NCBI GenBank assembly: GCA_048127485.1
Contig: JBHNWI010000006.1
Location: 46,407,358 to 46,471,357, forward strand
Origin: Solemya velum
Lineage: Eukaryota
DNA: 64,000 nt
Direction of reading: 5' to 3'
A model generated the notes under the pieces. The model saw nothing but the letters and a program-made list of their open reading frames with translations, searched no databases and was not told the origin of the DNA. A program made the position numbers and the translations under genes. Below, piece after piece: positions 10,424 through 59,540 of the stretch. The first letter of the stretch is position 1. Every line of letters begins with the position of its first letter.

Positions 10424-10483
10424 GTTGAGACTTCTGACCATGCGAGACTCCGTGTGCAGCTTGCTTTCAACAATAGATTCCAT
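10424..10483 (+). CDS. MVP: MVP exon. Translation VETSDHARLRVQLAFNNRFH.
   Basis: gcag| acceptor and GTAAGT donor. Matches human 'TADHARLQLQLAYNWHFE'. Confidence 0.9.
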
Positions 10484-15496: not shown

Positions 15497-15723
15497 ATCT
15501 ATAGAGGCAGCTGCCAGCCACGAGGCACAGAGAAATGAACAGGTTGCCAGGGGTGAACTGGAGAGACAGAAACTGCTGAACGAGAAAGAGTCTGAAAAAG
15601 AACGAACCAAACTAATAGAATTGCAGGCTATCACTGCAGCTGTGGAGTCAACCGGGTCAGCCAAGGCTGAAGCACAAGCACAAGCTGAGAAAACAATTAT
15701 TGAATGTGAAAGTGAGATAGAAG
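15497..15723 (+). CDS. MVP: MVP exon, start of the C-terminal coiled-coil/cap-helix region. Translation (R)[75 protein letters not shown].
   Basis: attcag| acceptor and GTGAGG donor. Matches human '[61 protein letters not shown]'. Confidence 0.9.
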
Positions 15724-17284
15724 GTGAGGTTAGCTTCATATTGGAGTCTGATGCTTCTATTCTCAGTTCGGTGTGTTCTTGTTTCTCCCACTTTCTTATA
15801 ATAACATAGGGGCAGATATGTTGTGACAGCAGTTATAGTCTGCTTCACTAATTAACATAATGTTAATTAACACACATCGACAGCCGCCTTACCCAACTGA
15901 AGGAACGTTTGGAGACTGGCGCAATGGATGTGATACAGTACACAGACACAGCATCCCATCTTCTGCATTTACAGCGATGATAACAATATATAAATGTTTA
16001 AGTGTAGTGCTTTAAGTTTCATATGTTGTATATATATGTTTTGATTTTAATTAATTATATCTTATTAATGTTTAAGTGTAGTGCTTTAAGTTTCATATGT
16101 TGTATATAAATGTTTTTTGATCTCTTATCAATTAATGTTTTATTACATTTAACATTTTAAGATAGTGTGATAAAATATGAAAACATTTGAAATGGGAATA
16201 AAATGCAGAATAGGTATATTAACAGTTAAATAGAGTTGTGACTGTTTTTAAAATTACAGGTAAAAAATCTTTATCAGAACAGACTATAATTGGTGTGCCA
16301 TTGTTCTCCAGTGTTTGTATAATTTCTTTGATCTCGGAAAAGTGGGAGAAAGAGGAACAAACCCTCAGTTCACAAACTAGAGTAAAAAGTTGGAGTAACT
16401 TTTGTGATTCAAACGGTAAAGCAAAACATGCTGCTGTATAAAGTGGTATGACCTGCCACCCTGAAACTTGAGAAATTTGGAAATAACCCAGCCTGGTGCT
16501 TATTAGCTACTGTGACTACATGATTTATGAAATTACTACAAATCAGTGAGTTGAAGTATGAAACATGTACTACGGAATATTTTATTCATAATCATGATGA
16601 AAAGACAGCTATTTCAACCCCTGACAGGTATCGGAGCTTGCCATGAGTGAGACGGCTGGTTCTCGATATTACAAAAAGCAATTCATGGTATGGCCATGGC
16701 TGTACAGGTTGGTTGTAATGTTGTTTACGACCCTGTGTACTGTAATAAATTTATATGAGTAACAGTTTGAAATCAAGACAATACAATGATAACTCTACTT
16801 TCAACACAGAATTTTACATAACAGGAGCTGTAGATCTTGGACACCTGAGAGTGATATGAATATTGTTGAATCATATGAAGGGGATATTGTTTATACATCA
16901 AATCAGATTGAGTTAATTAAACAAATTTATAAGTGATAATGCATGTGCATGTGATATGGAGTTTCATAGCCTATTTATGTACAGGTCACCCAAACAGCTT
17001 ATGTTATGTTTCATAATCAAATATATATCACATAGATAGATCATGGAAAGTAGATACTGGTAAAATAATCATTTGACCAGAAAACATCCCTTTTCCTGAT
17101 AATACTTTTTGGAAAGAAAGGTCTTCACGTCATCAATACATGGGTCCATTGGTATGTTCCAAAAAGAATTCACTGCCTGTAAGATATGTAAACTATAAAA
17201 TCAAACAAAAGATGAAAATCTGAATAGTTAACAAATAGACATTGGTTAAAGGCCGGGGCTGGAGGAATCCCATGCCAATCCATG

Positions 17285-20064: not shown

Positions 20065-21510
20065 GTGAATGTAACAAAGTATATATCTTTTGCTGCATAT
20101 GTTATGGTGTCATTATGCTTGATAGGCCTTATTTCTTCAGAATACTACCGCCCTATTGCGCTCACTAGTTGCATTTGTAAAACCATGGAACGTATGATCA
20201 ATGATAGACTTGTCTGGTTCCTTGAATCAAATAAACTGTTAACCAACATTCAGTGTGGTTTCAGGAGCCAGAAAAGTACTACCGACCACTTGGTCAGACT
20301 AGAAACTTTTATTCGCGAAGCTTTTATTCGTAAAGAACATGTTGCATCTATCTTTTTCGATCTTGAAAAGGCATATGATACAACATGGAAATATGGTATT
20401 ATGAATGACCTGTTTGATATGGGTCTTCGAGGACTTTTACCTCACTTCATTAGCAGTTTTTTATATGATAGACATTTCAAAGTAAAAGTTGGGTCTACCC
20501 TTTCTGATCTGCATGATCAGGAAATGGGTGTACCACAGGGAAGCATACTATCTGTTACCCTTTTTAGTATAAAAATCAATAGTCTTGCGAAATGCATAGC
20601 GCCAGGAGCTGAGGGATCTCTGTATGTTGATGACTTCCTCCTGTGCTATCGATCAAAAAATATGAAAAGCATTGAACGTCAACTCCAGTTGTCGCTTAAT
20701 AAAATGCAAAAATGGGCTGACAATAATGGTTTTAAATTTTCTAAAGCCAAAACTGTTTGCATGCATTTTTGCCAATCACGAGGACTTCACCATGATCCCC
20801 AGTTATTTCTCAATGGCACAGCGATTCCTGTGGTAAAGGAAACCAAATTTCTGGGTATCATGTTGGGTCCCAAGTTAACTTTTGTACCTCATATTAGATA
20901 TTTAAAGTCAAAATGCCATAAAGCTATTAATTTGTTGCGAGTTGTAGCACATACCGACTGGGGGGCAGATCGTCAGGTTCTGCTCCGCCTTTATAGATCA
21001 CTTGTCCGATCAAAGTTGGATTATGGTAGTGTAGTCTATGGCTCAGCTAGAAAATCATATCTGAAGTTGCTCGACCCCATTCATAATCAGGGTCTTCGAT
21101 TATGTCTTGGGGCTTTTAGAACATCCCCTGCGGAAAGCTTGTTCGCCGAGGCCAATGAACCCTCGTTGTATCTTCGACGTAAAAAGCTTTCTTTGCAGTA
21201 TGCTACTAAGCTGTACTCAAACCCTGATAACCCTGCTTTTGACTGTGTTTTTAATCCCAAATATGAAGTTTTATTTGTACAAAAACCTAATGCTATTCCA
21301 ACTTTTGGTATACGTGTTGGTCCTGAACTTGCGGAAACTGGTATTGATGTTGATCAGATAGCTGCGAACTCGGTGCCGAGGTCTCCTCCTTGGTTGACAG
21401 CAACACCAAAAATACTTTTCGATTTGAACAAGTCAAAAAAGGCCACTACTGATCCACTTCTTTACCGTTCCCAATTTTATGAGCTTCGTGATACTTATAG
21501 AATTTTATAG
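20065..21510 (+). CDS. LINE pol, reverse transcriptase domain. The track ORF starts at a GTG; this is not a native start.
   Basis: Canonical RT blocks 1-7 of non-LTR elements. Confidence 0.85.
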   Translation: MNVTKYISFAAYVMVSLCLIGLISSEYYRPIALTSCICKTMERMINDRLVWFLESNKLLTNIQCGFRSQKSTTDHLVRLETFIREAFIRKEHVASIFFDLEKAYDTTWKYGIMNDLFDMGLRGLLPHFISSFLYDRHFKVKVGSTLSDLHDQEMGVPQGSILSVTLFSIKINSLAKCIAPGAEGSLYVDDFLLCYRSKNMKSIERQLQLSLNKMQKWADNNGFKFSKAKTVCMHFCQSRGLHHDPQLFLNGTAIPVVKETKFLGIMLGPKLTFVPHIRYLKSKCHKAINLLRVVAHTDWGADRQVLLRLYRSLVRSKLDYGSVVYGSARKSYLKLLDPIHNQGLRLCLGAFRTSPAESLFAEANEPSLYLRRKKLSLQYATKLYSNPDNPAFDCVFNPKYEVLFVQKPNAIPTFGIRVGPELAETGIDVDQIAANSVPRSPPWLTATPKILFDLNKSKKATTDPLLYRSQFYELRDTYRIL

Positions 21511-21512
21511 AC

Positions 21513-22307
21513 ATTTATACTGATGGATCAAGGGAGGGTGACCACGCGGCAGCTGCAATCGCAACTCCAACTGGCATCCTCTCTACAAGACTTCCTGACA
21601 AATCTTCTATTTTTACTGCTGAACTTCGGGCTCTTCATATGGCACTGGACTATGTAGAGGAGTCCCATGACAGAGAGTTCATTATTTTTTCGGACTCTGT
21701 CATGTTCACAAGCATTAAAAATTCTTTAAAGTTCAAAAATCCTATTATATCTAACATTCTTGCAAAGCACAGCTGTCTTCTCTCCCGAGAGAAGAGAGTT
21801 GTGCTTTGCTGGATACCCAGTCATGTCGGTACCCATGGTAACGAACGGATGGATTCTGCAGCTAAAAAAGCACTGAATTTACCCATAACTGATTACAAAA
21901 TATTATATACAGATTTCCAAGATTACATTTTTAAATACATTCGTACCATCTGGCAGTCTCATTGGAACGAGGCTACTTCTAATAAGCTTCACGACCTGAA
22001 GCCTATTTTAGGTGAATGGCGTGAAGCTTACAGGAACATTCGTCGTGAGGAGGTTGTACTGTGCCGATGTCGCATTGGGCATACCCTCCTCACACACTCA
22101 TTTATTTTGAAGGGTGACACTCAACCGCAGTGTGTTTCTTGTTGCTGTCCTTTGACAGTGAAACACATCATGGTTGAGTGTCCACATTTAGCCAGCAATA
22201 GAGACCGTTTTTACAGAGTCCGAACAATGCTAGACTTGTTCGGCTCTGTTTCTACCGACCAGATTTTAAATTTTTTAAAGTATACAAATTTCTTTTCAAA
22301 GTTTTAA
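21513..22307 (+). CDS. LINE pol continuation, RNase H plus CCHC zinc finger. It is frame-shifted relative to RT by one frameshift/stop near 21480-21512.
   Basis: Dx(TDGS), WIPSHxGIxGNExxDxxAK and CxxCx..HxxxxC motifs. Confidence 0.8.
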   Translation: MYTDGSREGDHAAAAIATPTGILSTRLPDKSSIFTAELRALHMALDYVEESHDREFIIFSDSVMFTSIKNSLKFKNPIISNILAKHSCLLSREKRVVLCWIPSHVGTHGNERMDSAAKKALNLPITDYKILYTDFQDYIFKYIRTIWQSHWNEATSNKLHDLKPILGEWREAYRNIRREEVVLCRCRIGHTLLTHSFILKGDTQPQCVSCCCPLTVKHIMVECPHLASNRDRFYRVRTMLDLFGSVSTDQILNFLKYTNFFSKF

Positions 22308-29269: not shown

Positions 29270-31830
29270 CCACAGGAACATTACCAGGAACCTACCATCT
29301 GAAGATTGATCCACAAGCCAAACCGGTTGTACACGCAGCCAGAGGGCAACCCGCTGCATTGCTACCTAGGATCACAGAGAAACTTCATGAGATGGGCACA
29401 TTGAGCATGTGCGCCACCCCACGGACTGGGTGAATTCCAAGGTTGTATCGACCCGCGGAGATAAGATAAGGATTTGTATTGATCCAAGTGATTTGAACCG
29501 CGCTATCAAGCGAGAACATTACACGATGAGGACACTCGAGGGAATCGTTAGCAGAAGCCCACACGGGAAACTGTGCAACAATGAACACCCCAATAGGAAG
29601 GTTACGATTACCGTTTGGTATCAAGTCCGCGCCTCAGCTGTACCAGCGAACAATGGACGAGCTACTTGAGGGCATCCAAGATACCTATGCCATAATGGAC
29701 GATATCTTGATCGTGGCCAAGGACAGAGCACACCATGACTTGGTCCTACAGCGTGTTCTTGAGAGAGCTGAGGAATACAACCTGAAGCTGAACTGGGATA
29801 GAGCCAAAATCCGCAAGCCGTGAATCGCCTATGTGGGACACCTCTCAACGGAGAATGGACTGTGCCCAGACCCGGCTAAGGACCAAGCATAGAGATGCCA
29901 GCCCCAGACTCGAAGGAAGCCGTGAGCCGGTTCCTAGGATTCGTAGGGTACTTAGCCTTGTTCCTGCCTATACTGGCTGAGATAGAAGTATCTCTGCGCA
30001 AACTCACAAAGGATGACGTACGTACTGTTTCACTCGGACGCTCCCCAGCAACAGGCGTTTGAAACTATCAGAGAGATTTGCTCGAATCACCCTGTGCTTA
30101 CATACTATGATGTGGAGAAACTATGCACTATTCAGTGTGACACAAACAAGCTTGCAGTAGGTGTTTTGCTACTGCAGTCAGGTAGACCAGTAGCGTATGC
30201 GTCGAGAAAACTGAGATCGTCAGAACAGAGCTTGGCTCCCATCGAGAAGGAGATGTTAGCCATAGTGTTTAGCACATAGTTTCGTGACTATATAGTGGAA
30301 AAGGAAACAAACTGGAGAACATCTTTCTTAAACCCCTGTCCTACGTGCCTCTGAGGCTACAGACCATGATGTTGAAAATCAAAGAGTATGACCTGTGTGT
30401 GCAGTATGTTCCAGGGAAAGAGCAAGTACTTGCCGACACGCTCAGTAACATCACTGACTCACACGAGGACGAGGAACTGAACATTAACATGCTGGAACGA
30501 ATTTCTGTATCGCCCCAGAAATACACAGAATTCAAGCAAAACACAAGCAAAACACATTCAAGCAAAAAACCATCTGGTACAGACTGGATGGCCGGACACG
30601 AAACAAGAGACACCTCACAGTGTCAGGCCGTACTGGAACGTACGACAGGACCTCGCTGCCCTAGATGGAGTCATCTACAAAGAAATGCGCATTGTGGTAC
30701 CACCGTCCATGCAGGCCACTGTGCAAGGACTGATCTACGAAACGCACATGGGCATTGTCAAGTCCAAGCAACTAGCCCGGGATTCAGTCTTCTGGCATGA
30801 CAGCTCAGATAGAGGAGAAAGTGGCAGGATGTGCGGTGTGCAAAGACTATGTGCAGAAACAAACGAAGGAGCTTTTGCAACCTAGCTCTGTACCTGACCT
30901 GCCGTGAAGCAAAGTCGCGTGAGCCCTATATATTGACTATAGACTACTACTCAAAGTTCATCCAAGTGTCCAAGCTACAGTCACTGACCGCAAAAAGCAC
31001 TTTGCAACACATGGCATATCAGAACGCCTAGTGACAGACTGTGGCACACTTGCGCCGAGTTTGTGAAGTTTGGCAGACTATAACATCAACCATGTGCTCA
31101 TCAGCCCGAAACACCACAGGCAAATGGCGAAGCTGAGATTGGAGTAAAAATAGTGAAGGGATTGTGGCGAAGTGCAGAGACAAATAGAAAGCACTCTCGA
31201 ACTATCGTGCCTAGCCGATCCCCGGCATTGAGCTTTCACCATCTCAGTTGCTCATTCATGTCCAGGCAATTGAGAACATCCATGCCTATTGCCCGCAGCG
31301 GACTTACCCCATTGCACAACAACCCAGATAATGTCAAAGCACACATGCGTCCCCAGAAGTAGACGCAAAAGAGTAACTAGGACTGCAGCTCCAAGACCTT
31401 ACACCTCTCAGACCAGGTGATTCAGTCCGTGTGCAGCCACATGACGGTACCAAACTATGGAGAACAGACAAGGTGATCAAGCATCACAGCACGCCATGTT
31501 CATATGTCGTGGAGACTGAGGCTGACAGAATCAGGCGTAACAGACGAGCACTGCTTGTCGTACCACCAGTGCTAACGCCAAGGCTCACCAGAGAGGCACC
31601 GCCTCCGGATGAGGACATTGCACCTGCCCCGAGAACAGTTGTGCCAGAGTCGTCAACTGCCACATCGGCCTCCACCCCCTAGCGCTGCACCACCTCCGAG
31701 GTCGCCAGCCCCTCATCTGAAGCCACCACAGAGAGCTGCCCAGACCTGCGAGGAAGTTCCACCTAACACCTACAGCACAACCCGAAGTGCGCCAACCTCA
31801 GAAGTTGAACCTTTAAGTTTGAACATCAAG
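29270..31830 (+). mobile_element. Degenerate LTR-retrotransposon pol (Ty3/Gypsy- or BEL-like) carrying RT, RNase H and integrase remnants with many stops and frameshifts.
   Basis: 'KIRICIDPSDLNRAIKREHYTMRTLE', 'FGIKSAPQLYQRTMDELLEGIQDTYAIMDDILIVA' (the YxDD motif), 'LTYYDVEKLCTIQCDTNKLAVGVLLLQ...PVAYASRKL...EKEMLAIVF' (RNase H), 'HMGIVKSKQLARDSVFW...ILTIDYYSKFIQV' (integrase), and C-terminal 'VRVQPHDGTKLWRTDKVIKHHSTPCSYVVETE'. Confidence 0.8.
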
Positions 31831-32774: not shown

Positions 32775-33125
32775 CCCTAGTTCCCTTCCAAGCCGTGGCC
32801 TAGCTGAGACAGACAAAAGTCTTCAAAATTGGTATTCCTTGCGGCTACCTGTCAGGCGTCCGATGATGAGGTTAGCGCAAGGGCTGGTTAACCCGATGTC
32901 AGAATAATGTGACTGGGGATGATGTCATGTGGTATCCGATATGGTATTCTGGTGTGATAGCACCTTGAAGCGCGGCATCAGTCCGCATTGTCGCAAGCAG
33001 ACATGTTACTCACACTCACAAACACTTTAAATACACAATTTGATTTCACGTGATATAATATACAGTTGTGTTCGTATATATTTTTATGTAGCTGGCACGC
33101 ATGGGCTTAAGTCTAAGATGCCATT
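32775..33125 (+). repeat. SINE family A, 5'-variant copy.
   Basis: Core 'aaaagtcttcaaaattggtattccttgcggctacctgtcag' plus body and the tail 'gtagctggcacgcatgggcttaagtctaagatgccattcatcgaactaaccaacc'. Confidence 0.75.
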
Positions 33126-33144
33126 CATCGAACTAACCAACCTA

Positions 33145-35931: not shown

Positions 35932-36681
35932 CTACAAGACAAAAGGCATATTTAAAACGATCATATACACAGATATAATAAGATGAATAAGACCGCGCAC
36001 TAAGAATGGTAAATGTCGTCTGCTTAGCATAGCGGCAGCACACTCGTTTTGCAATATAGAGGTCTCGGGTTCAAGCCACGAAAATGTTCGGAGTTTGAAT
36101 TTCGGTCCCAAATCAGATTTTCAGAGTCTTTACGACATTAATGTGACCTACATTCCGCCGTACCTTGTTTGTGTCAGCTCGCTCTATTGGCGAGGAACGA
36201 TAAACATCACAGAAGATCATTGTACCCGACTTATTCTGGCTCAATCTCTTCCCCTCAAACAGTTAAATAGTTGTTTGACTAAACATGTTGGGGCAGCACA
36301 ATATGAAGATGTGTTCGTTTATATGTCTATGTGGCTGGCACATATGGGCTTAAGTCTAAGGTGTCATTAATTCAACCAATCAGCCGAAGAAACAAACAAC
36401 TTGAATTTAGGTTCACACATCGCATGTAAGTATCATTCTAACAACAAATCTGAGAAGAGTGAAATCTGGGAGCTTCATAGATTTGTAGAAACCTTAAATT
36501 CTGGAAAAAGTCACAGATTGCCATGGGAATAAAAGTTTATCAGGGTCAACACAGCATTCTCCCATGGAAAACACAAGAGCTAGAATCTGATAGCTTGGCA
36601 TCATTATACTGAGTGCATGTATGTTTCATAACCAATAGTAATGTTCCAAGTGGCCTATACAGAGTATGCAAATGTACTTAC

Positions 36682-38415: not shown

Positions 38416-39587
38416 TGTTCTATCAACATCCTAGAAAAAGGGGATATTATTATACATAATATGCACATGCATATACTAATAACTAGGATGTGACACAAGA
38501 AGACGATATCATCACATATCTTCCGCTACTACTTATGAAATATTTTTTATTCAAACATGCTACTGCTAGGTCCTTCATAAACGGATAATCGAAGTGTTCT
38601 AGCCTGGGATATTTGCCATTGGATCTGCTCCCTCAGGGACTAGTCCACCCTCCTAGCTAACACCTGTCACCTCCTAGATGGTATTGACATGTGTGTTGAG
38701 TGAAACTATCTGGCACGGTTTTAGAACCTAATGCTCCAGAAACTACGGACCTTTGTTGTTGTTGATGTGTTGTTATTGGTTTTTATTTTTTGTGGAGGGG
38801 GGTATTCGTATCCATCGTAACAGAACATATTGAAAATAAAAACTTGCCCATAGCAGAAGACACAATTAGATCATTAGGTCCTTATGTGTGAAAAAAAATC
38901 ATTCCGTTATCTTTAGCGCATTGGGACTTATGATCCGGAAACAGCAATTTTCATAATTTCGAATATCTGCTTCCATAGTGACAAAGAACTTGTTAAAACG
39001 AAAACATGCTGAGAGCAAAGGGCATTACTAGACAACTGTTTTATGATGTTATCTTCAACGGTTTTGGAGTTATGCCCCGGACACCATCAAAATTGGCTAT
39101 TTGTTTCTATGGTAACAGAAAAAAGTGTGGGAATTAAAAACTTCCAAATAGCAAAAAACACTATTAGACCATTTGATTGACATGTGTACGAAGTCTCAGG
39201 AAGTTATCTTGAACGGTTTTGGAATCATGCTCCGGGAACGCTGTCTGACAGCACGAACAGTGCTCAATTTTATACCCCGTTGCGAAGGATAAAAATATTG
39301 AGAAGTCAAAGATTTTTAATCTTTATTTTCCTCAATTTCCATAATGAACGCTAGGTATTCCCGACTGAAGGGTCGCTGGCTATGGTGCACTCTCGGTATT
39401 TCGTCTAATGTCGATGGAATTTGTAAAATAACATGCAATTATCATGCTACCTTTGGAATCGTTTGGCCTATTATTTTTTATATTAACCTTGAAAGACCAA
39501 GACTGGACAATACAAATCGCAGTGGATGGCAGTTAGACTTCTCAGTGCACAATGGTATCCTGTGGTATTTATCTACACCTCCATCGG

Positions 39588-39848
39588 CAGGGGCGGATCC
39601 AGGATTTGCGCAAAGGGGGACGCAGACCCCAATCGGCGAGCGTCGAAGGCGCGGAGTCTTTGTGCGGAGGGTCTGAGGGACCTCCCCCAGGAAAATGTGA
39701 AAATCCGTAATGTCAAATACGCGTTCTCCTGGGATCTGAGAGCTGGAATTTAAGAGTAAAAAAAAATACTCTCTGAAAAAAACGTTAGTGTGCCGAAATA
39801 AGGAGGGCGCGCGCCGCGTCGCGTGCGCCCCCGCTAAATCCGCGCCTG
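39588..39848 (-). mobile_element. MITE copy C of a ~250-bp family (TIR CAGGSGCGGAT...), flanked by a perfect 5-bp TSD ATCGG. It is inserted into a LINE 3' fragment.
   Basis: 'atcgg|caggggcggatcc...ccgctaaatccgcgcctg|atcgg'. It is the reverse complement of copy A (47920-48174). Confidence 0.85.
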
Positions 39849-39857
39849 ATCGGTGTT

Positions 39858-40200
39858 TTACTACTTTTATACGACTGCAACTCGAATACGCATCAGAAGT
39901 ATGGGATGGATATGGGATACTGAACACAGACCTTTTAGAAAGGATCCAAATAGAAATGGCAAGAATAGTAATTGGATTACCAAGCCATACAAGGAAACAC
40001 ACTGTTACAAAACGGGGTGGGAACCATTAGTGAATAGGCGGGAAAACAGACAACTAATTTTAATCTATAAAATAATAAATACCCCAGTACCCGACTATCT
40101 CTTAGATAGTTTGCCGACAGAAATAAATGCAAGGGCAACTTACAACTTAAGAAATAAGAATAATATTGACGACGTTCGTCCATACTAATTACAACATAAA
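39858..40200 (+). mobile_element. 3' terminal fragment of a CR1/L2-type LINE (C-terminal conserved tail of the pol ORF).
   Basis: 'FIRLQLEYASEVWDGYGILNTDLLERIQIEMARIV...GWEPLVNRRENRQLILIYKIIN' resembles the CR1-like 'LEYCVQ.W.P...KD...LE.VQRRA...LGLFSLEKRRLRGDLI.VYK' tail. There is one frameshift near 40020. The sequence upstream of the MITE (39480-39587) may continue the same element. Confidence 0.6.
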
Positions 40201-42654
40201 TTTGGAACCAATTACCCGCTTCGGCGTGAGATGTTAGAAGTCTAAATGCTGTTCAAAAATGCCTACAGAATACTGACCATAAGCTTGCTCCTAACTACTA
40301 TTACATTGGAAATAGACAACTACAGATTTTCGTAAAATCCACCTCGCTGATTCTCCGGTTCGTTCGTGTGGTCAGGCTCCAGAAACAGCTTCACGTTATT
40401 TAGCATTCTGTCCACTGATAAGCAAAACCTACTTTTAACAACACATATATCGAACAATAATTACAGCATCTCACTAAGGGGATCGGGGGATTTGAGCAGC
40501 ATGGAAAACCAGGCTATAAATATTTAAAAGTACAAACATATATAAAGGAAACTAAACGCTTCTGAAATGAAAATATCAGCAATCCGGAGACCCCCCTCCT
40601 CACATCACACACCACCCCTCCCTCTCACACCCCTACTCCTGCACTCAATATCTTTACTGTATTTTAATTATATATTTATGTATATGTAATACACATATAT
40701 CAAAATTACCTGTTCATCTGTTTTTAATCTGTATGCGGGAAAGGGCGTTCATAAATAGAAACATTTGCTGACCATTTTGACAATAAAACTTTATCAAACA
40801 AAAAAAAATTTGTTGTTTTAATTTTAAATAGATGTCATAACTACATTTGAAACGTCTCATAATTTTGAAAAAAAAAATGATCATCAATTTTACACTTCGT
40901 TTACAACTCGTTCTGTTAGTGTCCAGTCACATCTAACCAAAACACGTGAAGACGTTGACTGACGATACTGACAACAAGATTATAGCCGAAAACTATTGGT
41001 TATATCTTTTCAAGCTACACAAAGCATAAAGGATTTCGCGATAGTTTATATTTTTATTAAAAAGTTACGACTAGACCAAAGGAAACTTGTTATCACAATG
41101 ACCTCAATCGCTCAATGCCAAGATCATCTTGGTTCCAAAAATTGTGTCTCTCCGTGAATTGAGTCACTCCCTATGTATATTAAAAACATAAAAACATAAA
41201 AACATATATAAATAAATATACTATGATTCAGACATCAAAACACACATAAATGAGTTGAGGTCAATGCCATAGTGATTATATTAACCAATGTGACCTTGAC
41301 CTCTCAACACAGTAGGGAACACCATACCATAGACCCAAACGGATATATGTCAAACGGCATTGGATCTAGTCGAGTAGTGCCTAATTAAATTGTTCACAAA
41401 AGAATATGAGCGTAGGGTTTAAACTAAATTTGCCTCAGATATGGACTTTATAGGTATAGCTGTATAAAAAATGTGTGACTAACCTTGGGGAAGAACTCCA
41501 CATCATAGGTTGTCCTTGTGTGCATAGACGCCGCCATTGGTTCAAAATCTATCTTTCTGCAATCAGCTTTTTTCTCGATCTAAAGATAACAAATCGCGTT
41601 AGATGCATAGAAAAGGGACATGCTAGGTCTGTCTAAAATCTACCAAAGCAATATGCAAAGTTACTATACACGCACAATTAAAGTTGCGCTTACCCTTTAC
41701 ATAGTTAAGGCCTGTTAGATGTCCTGCCCTGGCACGGTACTATAGGGCACAGTATTTGGAGCCTAGCCTTCTCTTCTGTCTACATCTTCCATGAATGACC
41801 AGGTACTCATTCACTGCTTGGTACACAGGGAGTGCTTAAAGCCGCTGGCCCCTGGCACTCCAACCACTGAGTCGACCACGGCGCGGCTTCACTCTCTAGC
41901 ATGGTGTGTACTCAATGTCTTTTCGAATAAACTTGATTCCATTTTATGATTCTTAGATGAAAAATGTATCTTTCTCTCTTTATGCCCATCCTTCGGGGAC
42001 ACTTGTTCTATCGGCGGGGTCTCGCGTTCTTTCACTTTCTTGTGTAGTTACGTTGCCATGCATACGGATTGGTGTCTTTTAGTTTGCGATTCTGGCAGTT
42101 GGGTAGCTAGCTGATTTCATGGCACCTTAGTCCTGAGCCCATATGTACCAGCCACAATGACAAACATATGGACACAACTATATGCTATGTCGACACAGCA
42201 TGTTAAATCATACCAGTAGATGAATGCATCCGTTGATCATAAAGATCTCTGTTTCAGTAGGAGGCGACCAGTCCTGTTGCATTTTGCAAATGTCAGCATT
42301 GGTATATATCACCACGAAACTCGGGTCTGTCTGCTAACATTCAACTTGAAGTACTTTAATACCTTACAGTGGTCCCATCCTCCCAATACCCAAAGGGAAC
42401 GCAATATTGTACCACCCAAAAACCCGAAACACTACACAATGTAACCCATAATTATTCTACCTGATGAGTTGTGAAATCTTCACGATAAATTGTTTGCAAA
42501 TCCAGTCCACCAATCACTTCCGAACGCTGAACTGGTGGTCTTATACAGTCACACGGTTTTTGATAGGGCCAATTTTGATAAACCTTGAAATATAAAAACG
42601 TATATTTGATTCTTGTTTTTCTTGTACTAAAAAGTATAATTAATAAAATACGAT

Positions 42655-43030
42655 AACATCAGGTTCGTTGGTTGGTTGGATAGAAGACCTTAGACCTTCA
42701 GACCCATATGTCCGTGAAAGAAAGGGAGAGAGAGAAATAGTAAAAGACGGATACAGATGAACCTGGATACAATATCCCACTTTTGTTCCCGATATAGCCA
42801 CATACTTCTTTACATTGCTGTAAGTTGGTATGTAAACGGAAATCTCAGCCTGGTAGGTCGGTTGGTTGGTTGGTTGTATAGAAACCGTGGGCCGTAGAGC
42901 CATATGTTTGTGAAAAAGAGGAGAGTGAAAGACGGATACAGATGAACCCGGATACAATACCCTACTTTTTCTCGATAGAGCCATCTGGTTCTTTAACATA
43001 CTCGGTACAGAGCACCGATACACTGGTCTT
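42655..43030. repeat. Tandem duplication, 2 copies of about 185 bp each. Each unit begins with a (GGTT)n tract.
   Basis: '..cgttggttggttggatagaagacc..agaccttcagacccatatgtccgtgaaagaaaggg.gagag..a.agacggatacagatgaacc.ggatacaata.ccc.acttt' repeated. The spurious ORF 42640-43023(-) lies across it. Confidence 0.8.
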
Positions 43031-44159
43031 CGGTTTAAAGTCTCATAAGGTCACCCCGAGATTATAGAGACCTCTGAAAATCTGACCGACACCGCGGAGC
43101 TGCTAGCTATAAATAGCGAGAAGACAGGTCATTCGAAGGAAATTTCGAAAACGCAAATTATGCAACAGCCTTGGATATTGTTATCTGCGAAAAAGAAACG
43201 CCGAGGAAAACTTGATGTGATCTCGGTTGGTTACTTTATTAGCAAACCTAAATTGACTAATATTAAAATCATCAATTGGGTTTGGCCACAAATTCTTGAA
43301 CTTAGGATCGACCTCACTAGTACATCGAGATAACAAATAAAGTTGCCATATCAGTTGGAATATGCGGGTGACATGAAGGTACTATCTACACCTATCGACA
43401 TAAAATATTACAATAGTAATAGAAGATGTGCCATATACTCATTTAGTTTAATAATAACTTAATGATAGTGAGGTTCTGGAGATATCGTAGATCAGTGAAG
43501 CCGAGGCCAACTACAGTCTTGAGTTTTGTCGTCAGTTGCGTTGACGTTAATGATCAATGAAACCAAACGGTTAGCGATGAATAGTATTAGTGAGCTACTT
43601 GGCTGAGGTTTCTGTTCACACTCTGACCTACGGCACAGTTACGTGCTCAATGTAAAGAACGGATACACAGGACATCGGTTTATAGTCTCATCTGAAAGAC
43701 ATATGTCTACAACACAAAAAGTTGGAAGTGTTGTGATTGAATAGGCCTACATGCCATCGAATAAAACTTGATTTTCTGGTAAATTTTGGACAACCTTTAG
43801 GGGTCCCTTGCTATAATAAAGAGAATTTTCTCGGAAAGAGATGTCTAGATGCAATTTAAACTCACCGCAGAAAAAGAAACGAATGAAAAAAATTACCCGA
43901 AACATTTTAGAAATAAATAGACCGGAAATAAGAAGATGATTTTTTTTAATTACATCTCCGAAATGGTATGCTAGTTTAAAATGAGTTTCTTTGGGGTTGT
44001 TCAAGATTTATATATGCAACTACTTTTGAATAGACTGTTCAGTGATAGTAAGATAGTTTTTGTAGATTTCAGAATAGTTTAGTATCATGAGACGACTTGT
44101 CTTGTAAAAAATCTGGTTAGTGCTTTCTCCATCATTTTCTTGAACTTGAAGACTCTTTG

Positions 44160-44445
44160 GGGCATCCGTGGCAGAGGGGATAAGGCCCTGCGCTCAACGT
44201 CTAATTCCGATGCCTCTTACATCTCAACGGATCCGAGCCCCGGTTGTAGCAAGGTTTGTATCAAGCAAACTTGTTTTAACTGCGGAAGCATCCTGGGTTT
44301 ATGAGAAAGCTGTCTTCAATGGTCGCAAGCTCTTTCCGTCTACTTCTAGACAGTTTCTTCCTCCTGCTGCTCGCACCGACAGGAGCTTACATAGCCGCAA
44401 TTGTGCTGAACAAACCTCTAAAACAAATCATGCTACGTACTACGT
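44160..44445 (+). repeat. SINE family B, full copy.
   Basis: 'ggcatccgtggcagaggggataaggccctgcgctcaacg...ggatccgagccccggttgtagcaag...' then a body shared with 4270-4618. Partial copies at about 2215-2365, 27590-27725 and 62285-62365. Confidence 0.75.
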
Positions 44446-45399
44446 AGTCTTGTTGCATTTTTCATATTAATTTGTAGCATATGTAATGTGTGGTCATGAT
44501 GCAATTCAAACCAGTAGCATGAGAACTAAAATATTAAAACTAATGAGAAAGTTCAACACAGTTATAGTCTGTCCCAAGACACTGTTCTCATGTTTTCTAT
44601 GTCTCGAGTTCGAGAGTGAAAAATGTATATCAACAGCTGTACACGACTTGTTTCTGGGATTATTTTTGGTGATTCGCGGCTGCCAGGTTCTCCTCACTGT
44701 GTGTTCACGAGCGGGTTCTTCCTCCACCAAGTTCCACCGACGAAGGCCTAATGTTCGATATAGTGATTGAACACAAACCTCCCAAGAGAAATAATTACCA
44801 ACCAACCAAGACAATGGGGAGAATATCTAAAACTAAACTAGCATTCTACATCCAAATTATAACGTATTGTTGAAGTGACATTGCGAAGATATACAGTTTT
44901 CAGATTTCAAAACGCCGCCATATTCTTTCCTAATGGTTAATTTTCAATTTAGAAAAAAAAAACAGCAAACTTGACTCACCGACTGATACTCCGAAGTGGT
45001 GTTATCATCAACATTCAATATTGGTTTGGCGGTTACTGTCTTAGGATCACAGCCAGGTATTTTATTTTTCAAACTGAAATAGTTTTACAAATAGTCAGTT
45101 TGAAGTCCAAATTTAATCATATGTAATATATTGAGAGCAGATCAATAAAATTGTATAAATATACTTTCCACCTGAAGGCTGAAGAACAATTTTGCGGCGT
45201 TCCATATTTGACGTAGAAGTATAATAATTAAAACCAAACAGATTGAAGAAACAAATGAAAATTGAGTTGTGATTAGTTAGTAAATATACCTGTGATGAAT
45301 TTTCAATAAACCATCATCAAAATTTTTCAAAGCTACCATTGCGAGAACATCCAGTAACTGCAGCTAACATACCCTTGCCATCACATCACCTTCATGATA

Positions 45400-45545
45400 T
45401 TTTCACTTGTGACGTCGTATTAATTAGTGACGTCATAGTTATGAGCGACAACACTGTGTCGTACGAAATAATTTCGTTGATCACGTCGTGTGCTGAGTTT
45501 CGTACCAAATTGTACTTTCGTGCAATAATACGTCCGACGAATCAC
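45400..45545. promoter_or_regulatory. CpG-containing cluster of CRE-like motifs: TGACGTCG at about 45410, the perfect palindrome TGACGTCA at about 45428, and CACGTCG at about 45483.
   Basis: Motifs read directly. No gene assigned. Confidence 0.2.
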
Positions 45546-45894
45546 CCAAAAAATAAACTATTGAGAAGTACGTAAGTTGATCATATATAAATAAAAAAGA
45601 GTTTTTTTAGTGACCTTGATGTTAGGAATGTTAGAAAGATATACATAAAACATACCCATACCAATAGCCGCGGACCCATGTTTTAGTTAGGAAGGCGCAT
45701 ATATTCTTGACTTCAGTTTTACACACCCAGTATTTCACACGGGAGACATAAAACTAGTTGCTATATATTAGACGCCGGTCGTCCTAACCACCGAATATGA
45801 TGCGTATTGCTACTGGGGGATGTGCCGTGCCCCATCCTTACAAGAAAACAATAATTTCAATGGTGTAGGCATGACCCAAAAACGACCAAATCGT

Positions 45895-45902
45895 TGCAGT
45901 AG

Positions 45903-45969
<67 letters not shown>

Positions 45970-46065
45970 TTAAAATTATTAATAATAATAGTGATAATAG
46001 TAATAATAGTAATAATAGTAGTAGTAGTAGTAATATTTATAATAACAACAACAATAACAAATAAC

Positions 46066-46120
<55 letters not shown>

Positions 46121-46135
46121 TTAATAATAGTTTTT
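45895..46135. repeat. Compound (AAT)n/(ATA)n/(AGT)n microsatellite block.
   Basis: Direct. It produces the poly-Ile/Asn/Tyr track ORFs 45810-46167. Confidence 0.95.
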
Positions 46136-46559
46136 TTAAAGAAGGTAATTGAATTAGTTACAAACAACTAATCTTCCTTGGAGCGTTTCTAAAAATACTA
46201 TGAACATAATTGGATAATCAACATATATCACATATATATGATATTCACTCGTATCTGCAATAATTTAAATATATATATATTAATTATTTTATTTTATTCC
46301 GAAACAACTGGACTAAAACAGATAAAGAATCAATCATCATACAATCATTACAATTCAAATCTAAACTCACACTGAACAGACACATGAGTAAAAGATGTTG
46401 GCCTAGTATGAATTATAAGAAATAAGGATTTAGCTAGATCACAAGTCATCAAGACCGTGATTTCTAGTATATTCTGCTTCATATTCAGTTTTTAAAACCG
46501 TTTTATAATTTAGCTCAAATGAAACCAGACTAGATCAAAATTTGATGTATGGGAATAGA

Positions 46560-47570
46560 GTTCCAAAAGTGTACACCAGAATAACTAAACGATGTTTTAA
46601 ATAGTTCTATATGTATCTCGGGTAAATCAAATTCCTGTGTGTTGATGATCTCAAGTTATGTGAATTACAGTGCGTAACAGAAAATTCATTCTGTAGATAT
46701 TCAGGCGTAAGGTTACGAATGGTTTTATATACAAGATTACCAATGTGATATTTACATCTATAAGGTAAGAATGACTGGTTTAAATCCTTGAACATATCAA
46801 TCGATGGTGTTAACTGAGGTTTGTTCAAAATCATTCGTGCTGTTTTCTTTTGTAATTTGGTAAGTCGTTCAGTGTGATTTTTAGTTGATAAGCCCCAGAC
46901 TACAGATCCATAATCCAGTATGGAGTGATATAGGCATAATAGAATAGTAGCTGACTTTCCATGTTTAAGAATTTGCTTATTCGGCGAAAAAATCCTAGTT
47001 TGGATGAAAATCTTTTACAATCGCTATCAACTTGTTCATTCTAAGTGAGATATTCATCCACATACACACCTAGTATTTTTTGAAAATTAAGAGATGAGAT
47101 ATTATTGCCACCCATTGCAAGATTAAGAAGATCATCTTGCTTTACCATGTTTTTAGTACCTAATAGCACACATGTAGGTTTTGATGGGTTCAGGGCCATA
47201 TTATTATTAGAGTACAAAATATCAATTTTGTCAATACCATTCTGTAGTTTTTCTTCGATAACAGAGCAATTTTTGCCATCAGCATACATGTCAACATCAG
47301 CAGATTTTGTTACAAGTGGCAAATCGTTTATAAATAGAAGAAATAAAATTGGACCTAGGGTTGAACTCTGTGGGACACCAACCGTTACATTCAAAGAGGA
47401 AGATTTCATATCACCTACTTGAAGATGTTGTTTTCTATTCTGTAAATATGACTCTATTAGGTTTAAAACGCTACCGGAAAATCTATAAAATTTCAGTTTC
47501 CATAACAATATGTTATGATCTACCATATCAAACGCTTTCTTCAGATCGAGGAATACAGATTCCCAGAAGC
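46560..47570 (-). mobile_element. L2-clade LINE fragment carrying the RT C-terminal half and the characteristic 3' tail.
   Basis: ORF 47041-47526(-) 'GVPQSSTLGPILFLLFINDL...MYADGKN' (RT). ORF 46607-46834(-) '...YRCKYHIGNLVYKTIRNLTPEYLQNEF...HNLRSSTHRNLIYPR' resembles the L2 tail 'RI.FK.L.L.YKAL.G.AP.YL..LL......R.LRS'. Confidence 0.75.
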
Positions 47571-47919
47571 CTAGCTATTCGAACTGAGATCAGTCAGTAT
47601 TGGGCCCTGTCCCCGGGTTAATCTGGTCACAATCCCTTCCTCTAAAATTATTGTGATGACATAATATGCAGTTGTGTTCGTACAATTGTCTGTATGGTTG
47701 GTACATATGGACTGAAGTTTGGTGTGCCATTGATTCAACCAACCAACCAACCAACCAATTAACCAACCAATCAACAAACCAACCAAACACTCTTGTGAAA
47801 TGTGTTGCAAGCAATACAAGCCAACCGACGCTCTCAATGCTATATCTGGTTAACCGTAAAAGAGGAATTCCATTGTCAAACGTGCAACCACTCCTTCCAT
47901 AGACAAAATACTGAATGAA

Positions 47920-48174
47920 CAGGCGCTGATTTAGCGGGGGCGCACGCGGCGCCCCCCCCCCCGGCTTATTTCGGCACACTAATGTTTTTTTCAGAGGGTT
48001 CAAATTTTGGTCATATATAAAAATGTTTTTTGCTGGTGATTGACTTAAATTTCAGCCCTCAGATCCCGGGAAAACGCGTATTTAACACTCCAGATTTTCA
48101 CATTTTCCTGGGGGGGGCGGTCACCCCGCACAAAGGCTTCGCCCCCCTTTGCGCAAATACTGGATCCGCCCCTG
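47920..48174 (+). mobile_element. MITE copy A of the same family, with 5-bp TSD ATGAA.
   Basis: 'atgaa|caggcgctgatttagcggggg...ctggatccgcccctg|atgaa'. Confidence 0.85.
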
Positions 48175-48212
48175 ATGAACAACTCCATATACATATGGGA
48201 GATAAGTAGTAC

Positions 48213-48550
48213 TTCACAAGGCTCGTGGCCTACTGGTTAGAGCGACCACTCAGTGACTGGGAGGTCGGAGGCTGGAACCTCGGCTGGGACAAACCGAAAT
48301 GGTATTTTTTGCGGCTGCGGTGTCAGTATAATCTGACTCGCCGACAGGATGTCATGTGGTATGTATGACATTCTGGTGTGGCATCACTTTAAAGAGCGAC
48401 ATCAGTTACTCACACTCACAAACACTTGCCTACATGGTTGTGATTTCACATGATGTGGATATATAATGTACAGCTGTGTTCGGATATATATGTCTGTGTA
48501 GCTCGCGCATGTGGGCTTAAGTCATTAATCCAACCAACCAAACAAATAAC
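48213..48550 (+). repeat. SINE family A, full copy lying next to MITE A.
   Basis: Head 'ggcctactggttagagcgaccactcagtgactgggaggtcggaggctggaacctcggctgggac', then core and body, and the tail '...gtgggcttaagtcattaatccaaccaaccaaacaaataacc'. Confidence 0.8.
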
Positions 48551-49049
48551 CTCTGCTGAACTTCAGTCAAAGAGTAATCCTTGTGCATTACAGAAACTAT
48601 ACTGGACCGCAAAGCTAACATTGCCTCAATAATATCAAAAGCTCTCAGGTGGTGAGGGCTGGAAGAAGGTCCTGGTAGCTCTGGCAGTGAGGGGACGTCA
48701 TGCTGGGAGGTGTGATGTGGGTATCGCGCAAAATGGGGTCTCAGAACTTTCCCAATGTACTGAACAGTCGTTAGGAGTGTTCCTGCTTGATTCAGTGCCA
48801 TCAATTTCATCTCCAATATGGCTCTCGAGATCGCCGGAAGCATTTTGTGCCCGAAGAGCAGCATGTCTCTAGAACAATATCGAATACAAATGCTACTGCA
48901 TGAATATATTATAATTGTAAACTGTTCTGTCTTTCCCCTTACATTATATACTGATGGACCCAAGTCCAAGACACTGAATTGCATTTCTAGTAATTGAGTT
49001 GACGGCTAGTTTTTTATTTTGTTCATATAAAATATCAATTTCATACTCA

Positions 49050-49700
49050 ATGTCATTTTTTATTTTATCTTGTTGATCAAATCTCCAACCATCCAAGAGC
49101 AATGACATTTTATCCCCACTGATGAGAAGAACTGAAAGATCGGGTCTCCAAAAGAAGAAGCTGGTACAAAGTTCTCCGTGTTCTTCGCACAAGTGATGCT
49201 GCACGTGGTATTCACGTGCACACCGAAACCTGGGTTCAACATTCGTATTACAATACCAGTACTTTGCCGAGATACAAATCAGCTCAGAAGATCAAGGCAC
49301 TTGGGAGACTTGATGCTGACCAGAATATACTAGCCGTTGCCAATCACTATCTAGCAAGGATCATCTACAGGCTGAGCGGCGTTCCCTTGCCACTCTTGTC
49401 TATAAACAGCAAAGGACAGCTACTTGTCGAGTAATTAAGTTCACTCGACGAGAATCTTGGCGAAATTATGTCTCTACGTACGCTCATTTCTCCAACCTGT
49501 CTGCAATCAGTATGTCGTGCCATTCGTAGTTTAAAGGGACAATCATCTGGCTTTCAGGCCCCTCGCCACCTTTTGGACAATAATCGTACTATAACTGATC
49601 TCCCCGACATTGCGGATACTCTAGCGGATACTCTAGCATCCACTACCGGCCATAACTCCTCTATTGTCATGTGTAACCCTTCCTCTCTAGAATATCTCAC
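49050..49700 (+). mobile_element. Possible LINE 5' portion (end of the endonuclease domain through the start of RT). Degenerate and low confidence.
   Basis: 'ISPTCLQSVCRAIRSLKGQSSGFQAPRHLL' resembles the conserved LINE RT N-terminal block '...EV..AI..LK..K..GPDGIP.E.LK'. Confidence 0.3.
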
Positions 49701-49867
49701 TTAACTTTTATTTGCCATCTTCTTGTCCCGAAAGACCCTCTTAGTTTAAAATATTTATTCTCCACAAAACATAAAAGAAATGTTAAAAATGCAGTACAAC
49801 AAAAATAATGTCGAATAGGATGGGAACGAAAGCATTGCTTATTACTGTTCCTTTCCTAAAAGACCCT

Positions 49868-50745
49868 TTTGGGTTGTGGGACGGTAATACAATAACCAAC
49901 CAACCAACCACTAACAGCACGAGTTATCGTCCTAGCACTGGACGACCAAGGGTGATAACACAGAGACAAAACTGCCATGTTGTGTGACATCATCTGTGGG
50001 ATCCGTTCATTCGAGCGACTGAAACAACACGTCAGAAAGTGTGATAAGCGACACAGTACGTCGACGTCTCAATCAGGGGCGGATTCAGCACAATTTTTTT
50101 TTTTCAGAGGGTATTTTTTTTGTCATAAATGAAAATGTTTTTTTCAGGTAATTAACTCTTAAATTTCAGCTCTCAGATCCCGGGTGAACGCGTATTTGAC
50201 AAATCAGATTTTCATATTTTCCACCCGCTCCAAGGCTTCGCGCCTTCGCCGCCCGCCGATAAGGGGCTGCGCCCCCCCCCCCCCTTTGCGCAAATCCTTG
50301 ATCCGCCCCTGTCAATAGCGCGAATCTCAGTTGCCATAGACCTTACCATGGACCAATCCTCTCCTCGTTGTCGACGTAAACTATTTCAGTGGGCCGTGCA
50401 GCATCAATATTGCCGATACAGACAGTGAAGAACAGTTCTGTTCACTGACGAGAGTCGTTACTGCGTGTTAACTACAGATGGCACAGTGAGAATATGGCGT
50501 TGACGTGGTCAACGTTATTCATAAACAATTTGTTGTGGAAAGCGACACGTTGGGAGGTCCAAGCATCATGATATTGGGTAGAATCGGTCTGAACCAGAGA
50601 GTGGATCCTGTTTTCTTCCAAAACATGGATCCAGTGGGAGGAAGAGGTGGCATCACAGCAGCGCGTTACATCGACAAAATCTCGTAGACCCACGTCATTT
50701 TGCACGTCACCGGAACCACGTCTTCCAGCATAACAACGCCCGTGA
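49868..50745 (+). mobile_element. Tc1/mariner-superfamily transposase relic. It is interrupted by MITE B (50074-50311) and cut short or followed by a SINE at 50752.
   Basis: 'TGRPRVIT.RQ' (the GRPR motif) at about 49925. After the MITE: 'KLFQWAVQHQYW..VLFTDESRYCVLTTDGTVRIWR.RGQRY...CGKRHVGRSKHHDIG' resembles Tc1 'RL.WA.EH..W....W..VLFSDESRF.L..SDGR.RVWRR.GERY....V..T.KHGGGS.MVWG'. Further on, '...FQHNNAR' resembles 'QQDNAP.H'. Confidence 0.7.
50074..50311 (+). mobile_element. MITE copy B of the same family, with 5-bp TSD TCAAT. It is inserted inside a Tc1/mariner transposase relic.
   Basis: 'tcaat|caggggcggattcagc...cttgatccgcccctg|tcaat'. It shares the internal 'ttcagagggt...aaatttcagcyctcagatcccggg.gaacgcgtattt' sequence with copy A. 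Confidence 0.85.
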
Positions 50746-50751
50746 CCAGAG

Positions 50752-50950
50752 CCGTGGCATAGTGGATAGGGCGCCCGCTCGGCAACTGGGGGGTCGTGGG
50801 TTCGAACCCCGGCCGGGACAAATCAAAATCTTCAAAATTGGTATTCCTTGGGGTGATCCCAGCAAAGGCCCCCAAGCGAGCCTGCAGGGACGGGCCACGG
50901 GAAAGGTCTTTTGGTGGGATTACCAAACCAACATGCTACAGGTGGTGTAA
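50752..50950 (+). repeat. SINE with a distinct tRNA-like head fused to the family A conserved core, truncated after the core.
   Basis: 'gccgtggcatagtggatagggcgcccgctcggcaactggggggtcgtgggttcgaaccccggccgggac' then 'aaatcaaaatcttcaaaattggtattccttgg'. Confidence 0.65.
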
Positions 50951-51096
50951 ATATATATAAATTGTAGCGACCGATTCGGGTGAAATTGTAGCGGTCAGTT
51001 CGGGTGAAACTGTAGCGGCCGATTTGGTTGGCGACCGGTTCGGGTGTAATTCCTTATTCTAGACCACTGTCACCTGACATAAATAATGTTGTTTGA

Positions 51097-57339: not shown

Positions 57340-59540
57340 TTATATGGATGATTGGTAGATCTGGTGGTATCCTGACCAAATCACAAGATCAAAATCATTA
57401 ATCTGAAGCTGCGAACCAGTGTACTGATCATGCTGAGTTAGCATTTCATGTAATGAAAATCCTCTTGCTCGGATATGAGTATTCAGTCTTGCCACAGCTA
57501 GAAACAAAACAAATGATAATACTGAACCAGACATTGATATAATAATTCGTGTTCCTGAATAGTCTTTTCCGTCACTGGGTTCTTAATAATGTTTTCAATA
57601 CTGATACCATATTTTGAGAGGATGTCATCATTAACAAGAGAAACAAAACATGATGCCAAATCGGAGCGCAGAACTATAGAAATAGACACAAGTCCAGACC
57701 AAGGGACAGCGGAACATTTTTTATTGTCTTGCACTGTTCAGTTTCAACAAGACCAGTCCTTGTATATGATATTACACATTCTCAAAAAAACAAAAACATT
57801 GTCTCGCTTATTTCATAGTATCCTCTGTGAATGATACTTCTACACTGGCTGGGGGGCTTTCAGAAGATTGTTCACTAACAACATGCGGAACCTTTTGTAA
57901 TGAAGCACAGTGATGGCACGACATGGTCACTCTGTCCAATGTGTCATCCAAATCTAATGCCAAAAAATGATGACGTACAATCAATTTTAGCTGAGTACAA
58001 GATGGGTGATCTAACTTTATGCAGAGCAGTCAACAAGCCCTTGAGAACTTCTCTTGGTACGACAATGCATTCTTCCAGCGAAGGGTCTGTCCATTCCACA
58101 ACTAATAACATGTCCTTTGTAATAGAAACATTGTTCAGATAGTGCTTGACATCTTTAATATTTGTTATCTTTTTGTAGGGACAGTGCCTTGTTTCAGATG
58201 TGCACTTTGATTTTATATTCAACCACATAAACCTTTTAGTGAAAGGTAGTTTGAAAAAATCCAACAAATTGGCATGTGCATTTGAGCAACTTACAACGAA
58301 TTCTCTAGTTTGCAATATGAACAAACAATTTTGGAATTTCTCGTCACTGCAATTTTGTGCCTAACGGCTTGCAAAATTTGAGGGTATATTTGCTGAACCA
58401 GCAAGATTTGAATTTGAGTACAGAATCAACATTGGGCATGGGAGAAGATTGTGGTTTACTGTATCTAGCGACATCGGTGATCGCAGGAACTACCGGTAGT
58501 CTAAATCGACCATTAGACTTTTTTATTAGAAAAGATGGGTTCACATTATTATGACGTACTCTACATTGTTGTTCTAGTTCATTAAATTGGTCTTAGAGCT
58601 CTACAACTTTATCCTTAGAGTACAATTTTTTAGAGGGGCTGTACAGGTCTCATATTAACAACAGCTTTGAAAGGCCCAGACTTGCCATTATAACCCTTAA
58701 AGTTAGGGCTGAACACTTCATTGTACTGTTCAAGTAGAGAACTGATATTTGCTCTATCTGAGCATAAAAGTGTATTGTCTGAATCTACTGCCATTGCTGT
58801 GGAATGTAGTGTGTGTGGCTGTGTATTGACTCAAGAGGTTAGATGCTGTTTGTGTTCCTGCATAGGTAAAGTCCACACTTGAAAATGATCTGGAACGAAT
58901 GTTGTTAAAACTTGACAGAAATGTTCGTTTTTTTTGCAATGTTTGCAGATAATTAGTCAAGTTCACTATTCTGATTTTACCATCAAAACTATGAACAATA
59001 TCTGGAGCTGGCAAATGTTATTATACTCGCTTGGTCTACTACAGCCATCTATACACGATTCAATCGCATAGGTCCCATCCAGAGGCAAGTTTGTCTTGTA
59101 GATCTACTTCAGCATATTCATCAGGAAGCACAGTAGTGTGTATGTTAGGCGCATGCAGTACTTGAGCTCGATGTACAGAATGGCAGGAACTGGCAGACTG
59201 TTGGGCTTCGTATACATAGATTGTACCATCATGAAGAATGGCATGTTTCTTGGCTGGCCAAACACTGATATCATTCAACTCCATGAGATGTGTACTAGCC
59301 AGAATTTCGACGTCTAAATTCTGAACTACTAAACCTCTAAGAAGAGTGAAATCGATGCAAGTTTCACCAACAACAGAGAGTGGTGACAACGAATCAGCAT
59401 GATGTGCGGACTGAGTACTCTTTTCAATTTTGGCACTGAGAACTTTGCAGGTAGAATTTCTTATCATATTCCCAGTTGCCCCGCTTTCAATCATAAGTGC
59501 TGTGTGATAATAGCAAAAGCTGTCGAAGTGAGCCAACTGT
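57340..59540 (-). mobile_element. Degenerate LTR-retrotransposon fragment (aspartic protease plus RT) on the minus strand.
   Basis: ORF 59060-59536(-) has 'ALMIESGATGNMI' (the retropepsin D-S/T-G-A motif). ORF 57944-58324(-) has 'KDVKHYLNNVSITKDM...ILYSAKIDCTSSFFGIRF', resembling RT 'DYR.LN..T.KD.YP...FSKIDL.SGYHQI'. ORF 57498-57734(-) has 'FVSLVNDDILS', a YxDD-like motif. Confidence 0.6.

Follow-up and report, generated by a model that had tools for sequence, protein, structure and literature searches.

A family of short non-coding DNA transposons with 5-bp target-site duplications in Solemya velum, probably mobilised by a hAT5-type transposase

The stretch of DNA considered here, which will be called the window throughout, comprises 64,000 nucleotides from Solemya velum (assembly GCA_048127485.1, contig JBHNWI010000006.1, positions 46,407,358 to 46,471,357 of the forward strand), and the subject of this analysis is a family of short repeats of which it contains three copies. 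Reading and aligning the three intervals shows that they belong to a single repeat family, the members of which are MITEs (miniature inverted-repeat transposable elements), that is, short, non-coding, non-autonomous DNA transposons of the cut-and-paste type; each of the three is a true insertion, at which 5 bp of the target were duplicated. The enzyme that moved them was probably a hAT transposase of the hAT5 type. The copies, each with its terminal inverted repeat (TIR) or 3′ end given in the orientation of the element, and their target-site duplications (TSDs) are as follows.

39588 to 39848, minus strand: MITE copy A, 261 bp, with 5′ TIR CAGGCGCGGAT and 3′ end ATCCGCCCCTG
47920 to 48174, plus strand: MITE copy B, 255 bp, with 5′ TIR CAGGCGCTGAT and 3′ end ATCCGCCCCTG
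50074 to 50311, plus strand: MITE copy C, 238 bp, with a perfect 11-nt TIR, CAGGGGCGGAT and ATCCGCCCCTG
39583 to 39587 and 39849 to 39853: TSD of copy A, ATCGG (read on the plus strand)
47915 to 47919 and 48175 to 48179: TSD of copy B, ATGAA
50069 to 50073 and 50312 to 50316: TSD of copy C, TCAAT

The positions and strands of these three copies of about 250 bp had been proposed in an earlier, sequence-only reading of the window, and are borne out by reading and alignment, as are the shared termini and the internal core that it quoted. While the 5′ ends are those listed for each copy, the 3′ end is common to all three. The TIR is 11 nt in length, CAGGSGCGGAT, and over this length the two ends of copy C are fully complementary (100%), those of copy A are complementary to the extent of 91% and those of copy B have two mismatches; if mismatches are allowed, the TIR can be extended to about 15 nt. 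On both strands the element reads 5′-CAGG...CCTG-3′, all six ends beginning with CAGG (in the form of either CAGGC or CAGGG). Beyond the 11-nt TIR the complementarity becomes patchy, resuming where the subterminal motif GGGGGCGCA, which is GC-rich, and its complement occur, the two being offset from one another by an indel.

As to the interior, a 26-nt core pattern finds three matches in the window when at most one mismatch is allowed, as against none in shuffled sequence, while CCTTTGCGCAAAT occurs exactly three times in the window. Pairwise identity among the copies, with gaps excluded, is 81–87% (i.e. they diverge by 13–19%), and to this must be added large block indels: copy C is without about 43 bp of a GC-rich 5′ subterminal segment that A and B both have, about 38 bp close to the 3′ end are missing from copy B, as is an AT-rich internal block from copy A. 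Sensitive BLASTN, together with TIR and pattern searches, brought to light neither a further copy nor any fragment elsewhere in the window. The core also carries a conserved inverted repeat, consisting of CCCGGGAAAA and TTTTCCTGGG separated by 28 nt, at 48065-48112 in copy B and 39686-39733 in copy A (in copy C it is degraded), and this may be a candidate transposase-binding or structural motif.

All three copies are flanked by a perfect 5-bp TSD, and the flanks of copies A to C do not match over 8 bp or over any other longer length. Outside the TSDs the sequences surrounding the three copies are unrelated, and the similarity among them stops exactly at the inverted termini. Calculated from base composition, the probability that 5-mers on either side of an element would match by chance is about 1.3e-3 for any one element, and for all three elements together about 2e-9. 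It could be supposed that no transposition was involved at all, the copies being pieces of some larger repeat, or local duplications, bounded by 5-mers that happen to match, and in keeping with this no more than three have been seen, all of them inside a 10.7-kb part of the 64-kb window; however, the unrelated flanks, the precision with which similarity ends at the inverted termini, the improbability of three perfect 5-mers and the exact restoration of an empty site (described below for copy C) effectively refute such an explanation. For the clustering itself, i.e. three copies within 10.7 of 64 kb, the calculated value of p is about 0.07. Local hopping was considered as its cause and rejected, since copies that differ by 13–19% and by large indels did not arise from each other by recent jumps over short distances.

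All 30 bases of the TSDs are intact, despite the divergence and the block indels that separate the copies; had the whole of that divergence arisen after insertion, intact TSDs would, by estimate, be expected in only about 8% of cases. It follows that part of the divergence among the copies probably lies between source subfamilies, rather than representing decay in place.

Further evidence as to the boundaries of the element comes from copy C, which interrupts a recognisable older element:

49264 to 50752, plus strand: decayed Tc1-like transposase pseudogene, host of copy C (from tblastn of intact homologues, Pfam and empty-site alignments)

In tblastn searches intact Tc1 homologues map to 49264-49377, 49907-50041 and 50311-50752 of the window, and the insertion point of copy C falls between the codons for ...VRRRLN and those for SANLSCHRPY.... 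When the 238 bp of copy C are deleted in silico along with one of the two TCAAT repeats, the translation reads ...SDTVRRRLN followed directly by SANLSCHRPYHGPIL..., and the restored protein aligns with five intact Tc1 transposases (P0122-P0126), one of them from Haliotis asinina, with no gap at the junction. Against the Pfam profile HTH_Tnp_Tc3_2, 34 residues of the restored protein align with 34 profile positions, collinearly over the junction, and although the match is weak in itself (E=0.015) that of a frame-corrected composite is stronger (E=7e-4). The same conclusion can be reached at the level of DNA by comparison with an intact Tc1 copy (L003): removal of the element and one TSD gives an alignment that is gap-free at the junction, while keeping both TSD copies leaves a 5-nt excess and removing both leaves a 5-nt deficit. 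Such exact restoration of the Tc1 site confirms the ends of the element and shows that the 5 bp were duplicated when it inserted, thereby reinforcing what the sequence-only reading had taken the exact TSD of each copy to be, namely direct evidence of transposition. On the other hand, that reading had placed copy B in the Tc1 transposase, and tblastn, Pfam and the empty site all show that the interrupting copy is C.

Nested in the Tc1-like pseudogene there is also another insertion (about 49378-49906), which separates transposase codons ~40 and ~45, is some 530 bp long and ends in (AACC)n; this insertion probably represents a retroposon belonging to the (CAAC)n-tailed SINE-like family (SINE being short interspersed nuclear element) that is found elsewhere in the window. 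A Tc1 relative is present in Haliotis asinina. Overall, the best relatives are 60–73% identical, and exact look-ups of two ORFs from the window found no record.

Copy A also lies against another element, probably an older one, in this case a long interspersed nuclear element (LINE), of which it abuts part of the second open reading frame (ORF2):

39854 to 40215, plus strand: C-terminal tail of LINE ORF2, host of copy A, reading CFTTFIRLQLEYASEVW...ERIQ...YKIINTPVPDYL (from translation and BLASTP)

This tail starts immediately to the right of the TSD of copy A, and resembles that of a LINE bearing a reverse transcriptase (RT) at 46.5–47.5 kb (BLASTP, E=3e-5). It is A, and not C as previously proposed, that lies in a LINE tail. 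On a reading of the translation only, the LINE would extend leftwards past copy A, and in the empty-site comparison for copy A the LINE paralogue within the window aligns only from a point 10 residues past the junction. Copy B, for its part, is in a non-coding region, has on each side of it a copy of a dispersed SINE-like repeat that carries a (CAAC)n tail, and adjoins a 5′-truncated LINE on the minus strand. It had been suggested that the family was active after the elements into which it inserted had died; arrival of the MITE later than the resident element stands for copy C and probably holds for copy A, though the hosts are not those originally named.

The dispersed repeat on either side of copy B is about 350 bp long; its head is tRNA-like (ggctcgtggcctactggttagagcg...), its tail is (CAAC)n and its copies, which are 62–77% alike, lie at ~3960-4200, 12007-12380, 32800-33143, 36264-36400, 48205-48565 and 50745-51010. 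Neither ARAGORN nor Rfam made any call on it, and its appearance is that of a mollusc SINE family.

The three MITE copies have no coding capacity. Their longest open frame, of 86 amino acids in copy A, has no homologues among 1.84 billion representatives searched with HMMER, the one match being spurious and of low complexity; a composite query, in which the six-frame translations of the three copies were concatenated, gave no match at E<=1e-3 in a word-indexed protein search, and no open reading frame (ORF) spanning the copies has any match in Pfam. Their lengths of 238–261 bp fall well within the limit of roughly 800 bp that applies to MITEs with TIRs. Two other kinds of structure were considered for these copies and rejected: an RNA or SINE nature, there being no Rfam match and no tRNA found, and a hairpin or foldback conformation, for which the z-scores from DNA folding are only -1.0 to -1.9, with nothing beyond the pairing of the TIRs.

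The question of which transposase mobilised these elements can be approached through their termini and the length of the TSD. The sequence-only reading held that hAT elements give 8-bp duplications, and that a 5-bp TSD combined with CAG-type termini is unusual. This is not borne out by the literature, in which hAT5, a group of hAT elements having TSDs of 5 bp, dates from 2007 (PMC12730594, PMC9004415; Kapitonov & Jurka 2007, Repbase Reports 7:1188); hAT5 elements occur in invertebrates and fish (PMC9004415), and hAT-hAT5 is a standard RepeatMasker class (DNA/hAT-hAT5), found for instance in Hydra (PMC12220107). The terminal motif of hAT elements is YARNG (PMC3014272), the third terminal base being always G in hAT but C in Transib and in the heptamers of recombination signal sequences (Kapitonov and Jurka, PMC1131882), while hAT TIRs range from 5 to 27 bp (PMC3517528). 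In the present family both YARNG and G at position 3 are found at all six ends, the 11-nt TIR falls inside the hAT range, and all three copies have the 5-bp TSD of hAT5. From these terminal features the mobilising enzyme is considered to have been a hAT5-type hAT transposase, with a probability of roughly 65%, hAT5 resembling the MITE family in its 5-bp TSD, its CAG/YARNG termini, its short TIR and its occurrence in invertebrates.

The sequence-only reading had instead pointed to Transib or Ginger, in neither case in agreement with the defining termini and TIR architecture. Derivation from Transib would explain the 5-bp TSD, which is a hallmark of that superfamily (PMC1131882) and is seen here, but this is all that Transib and the MITE share. 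In every Transib family the CAC at positions 1–3 is perfectly conserved, and the 38-bp TIR comprises a CACAATG heptamer, a spacer of 23 bp (or 12 bp) and an A-rich nonamer (PMC1131882); in the MITE all six ends start with CAG instead of CAC, ungapped complementarity stops after 11 nt, and both of the possible nonamer positions (at 12 and 23 bp) are GC-rich, with no A-rich nonamer at either. Transib also favours targets rich in GC, while among the MITE TSDs two out of three are AT-rich, although with n=3 this is a weak point. A 5-bp TSD is thus no indication of Transib when taken alone, since it is the third terminal base (G as against C) and the architecture of the TIR that discriminate, and a Transib origin must be judged highly improbable.

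Integrase-type enzymes typically make duplications of 4–6 bp, and a further explanation would be that the copies derive from a Ginger2/TDD-like element, or are related to long terminal repeat (LTR) elements, as solo LTRs or terminal-repeat retrotransposons in miniature. Both LTR elements and TDD-4/5 typically make 5-bp duplications (PMC2836005, PMC6839031), the latter being Dictyostelium elements that share this length with the MITE (PMC2836005). However, Ginger elements have TGTNR termini and TIRs of 40–270 bp, a range of 50–180 bp being given as well, and metazoan Ginger2 has a TSD of 4 bp (PMC2836005), as compared with CAGG termini, an 11-nt TIR and a TSD of 5 bp in the MITE; similarly, solo LTRs and their miniature relatives would have termini of the form 5′-TG...CA-3′, whereas those of the MITE are 5′-CA...TG-3′ on both strands. 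An origin of this sort is barely credible.

A closer parallel is to be found in two MITEs derived from hAT in Drosophila willistoni, Mar and Vege, that are short and non-coding, with an AT-richer interior, much like the present family, and that were placed in hAT from their TIRs and TSDs before any partner was known (PMC3517528). The 11-bp imperfect TIR of Mar, CAG(G/A)GGTAGGC, starting CAGGGG, parallels the MITE TIR in form; Mar differs in having 8-bp TSDs (of the Buster type, nnnTAnnn) and a length of 610 bp (PMC3517528), as against 5-bp TSDs, a length of about 250 bp and GC-rich subterminal regions in the family described here.

If general class II biology can be taken as a guide, mobilisation would have proceeded as follows. 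A transposase whose gene lies at some other place in the genome would bind the 11-bp TIRs (CAGGSGCGGAT), and probably also the GC-rich subterminal inverted motifs; it would then excise the MITE and insert it at a target site where the two strands are cut 5 nt apart, and repair of this stagger would generate the 5-bp TSD. The likeliest source of such a transposase, acting in trans, would be a hAT5-type element of the hAT superfamily. The footprints that hAT elements characteristically leave on excision are short palindromes derived from hairpins.

There are a number of points that weigh against assignment to hAT5. Membership of hAT5 is defined by the transposase, while the MITE family is known here from non-coding copies alone, so that the assignment depends wholly on termini and TSD length; of these, YARNG is a short and permissive motif, and the comparison of the MITE termini with hAT5 is with its description in the literature. 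The family is known from three copies in 64 kb, and the TSD length is drawn from n=3, as any target consensus would be. A hAT transposase is characterised by a BED zinc finger, a DDE/RNase-H fold and a hAT dimerisation domain. When Pfam was run over stop-to-stop ORFs of at least 70 amino acids in the window, the matches were to RT, RNase H, major vault protein (MVP) and one zinc finger; no ORF of this set contains a hAT domain, nor any DNA-transposase domain other than that of the Tc1 remnant, and no transposase-bearing partner with these TIRs was found anywhere in the 64 kb.

Looking further afield, exact patterns for the core and for the 3′ subterminal region with the TIR gave no matches in metagenome, genome and viral collections (the source genome not being among them), and no copy of the MITE was found in the related mollusc loci ENA ERZ25069866, Haliotis asinina GCA_037392515.2 and Logan SRR19345945.

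It might then be asked whether the MITE was moved by some transposase lineage other than hAT5 that also makes 5-bp TSDs, either one as yet undescribed or some superfamily already known, the termini of which would then be atypical. This would be compatible with the absence of the family from the searched collections and of a partner element from the window, the superfamily having been deduced from an 11-nt TIR and the length of the TSD alone; but every hAT terminal feature tested is present, a hAT group with a TSD of exactly 5 bp is already known in invertebrates and nothing in the data requires a new lineage, so that on balance it seems unlikely. A more specific proposal, more doubtful again, would be an undescribed transposase that combines a 5-bp stagger with hAT-like CAG termini and belongs neither to hAT5 nor to Transib, or, in a more modest version, a mollusc-specific branch of hAT5 for which no autonomous element has been catalogued. 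With hAT5 retained as the preferred assignment, the family is probably either new or merely uncatalogued, its features as read from the sequence matching those of a known hAT subgroup and being ordinary for a repeat-rich invertebrate genome.

The remainder of the window contains a number of other features. The only clear cellular gene seen is that for MVP, host-gene exons of which lie on the plus strand at 10370-10591, 12416-12832 and 15474-15806, the evidence being a Pfam match to MVP_shoulder (E=7e-11), a weaker one to Vault_3 and an exon resembling the cap helix. A largely intact jockey-like LINE occupies 20065-21510 and 21639-22307 of the plus strand, with RT (in a 481-amino-acid ORF) and RNase H ORFs, and the nearest relatives of its RT, which are 67–73% identical, come from Plakobranchus and from clam-associated assemblies; together with the Tc1 relative in Haliotis asinina they give the genome a molluscan appearance. 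Pol fragments of a Gypsy-like LTR retrotransposon lie at 29530-30882 (plus strand), in the GC-richest part of the window, and comprise RVT_1, RT_RNaseH_2 and an integrase-like ORF; a weak H2C2 zinc-finger match (E=0.002) at 57811-58360 on the minus strand suggests another decayed integrase-bearing element. In addition, positions 45905-46129 are taken up by a long microsatellite, (TAA)n, in which the unit is repeated about 75 times.

As regards the wider meaning of these results, the nested insertions provide a relative chronology, which places the arrival of the MITE later than the Tc1-like copy and probably also later than the LINE copy. Beyond repeat annotation the significance is small, although a clean consensus with defined ends and a defined TSD would improve both masking and the classification of transposable elements in this molluscan genome. 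Were a partner hAT5 transposase to be found, it would add a mollusc example to what is a sparsely documented subgroup of hAT.

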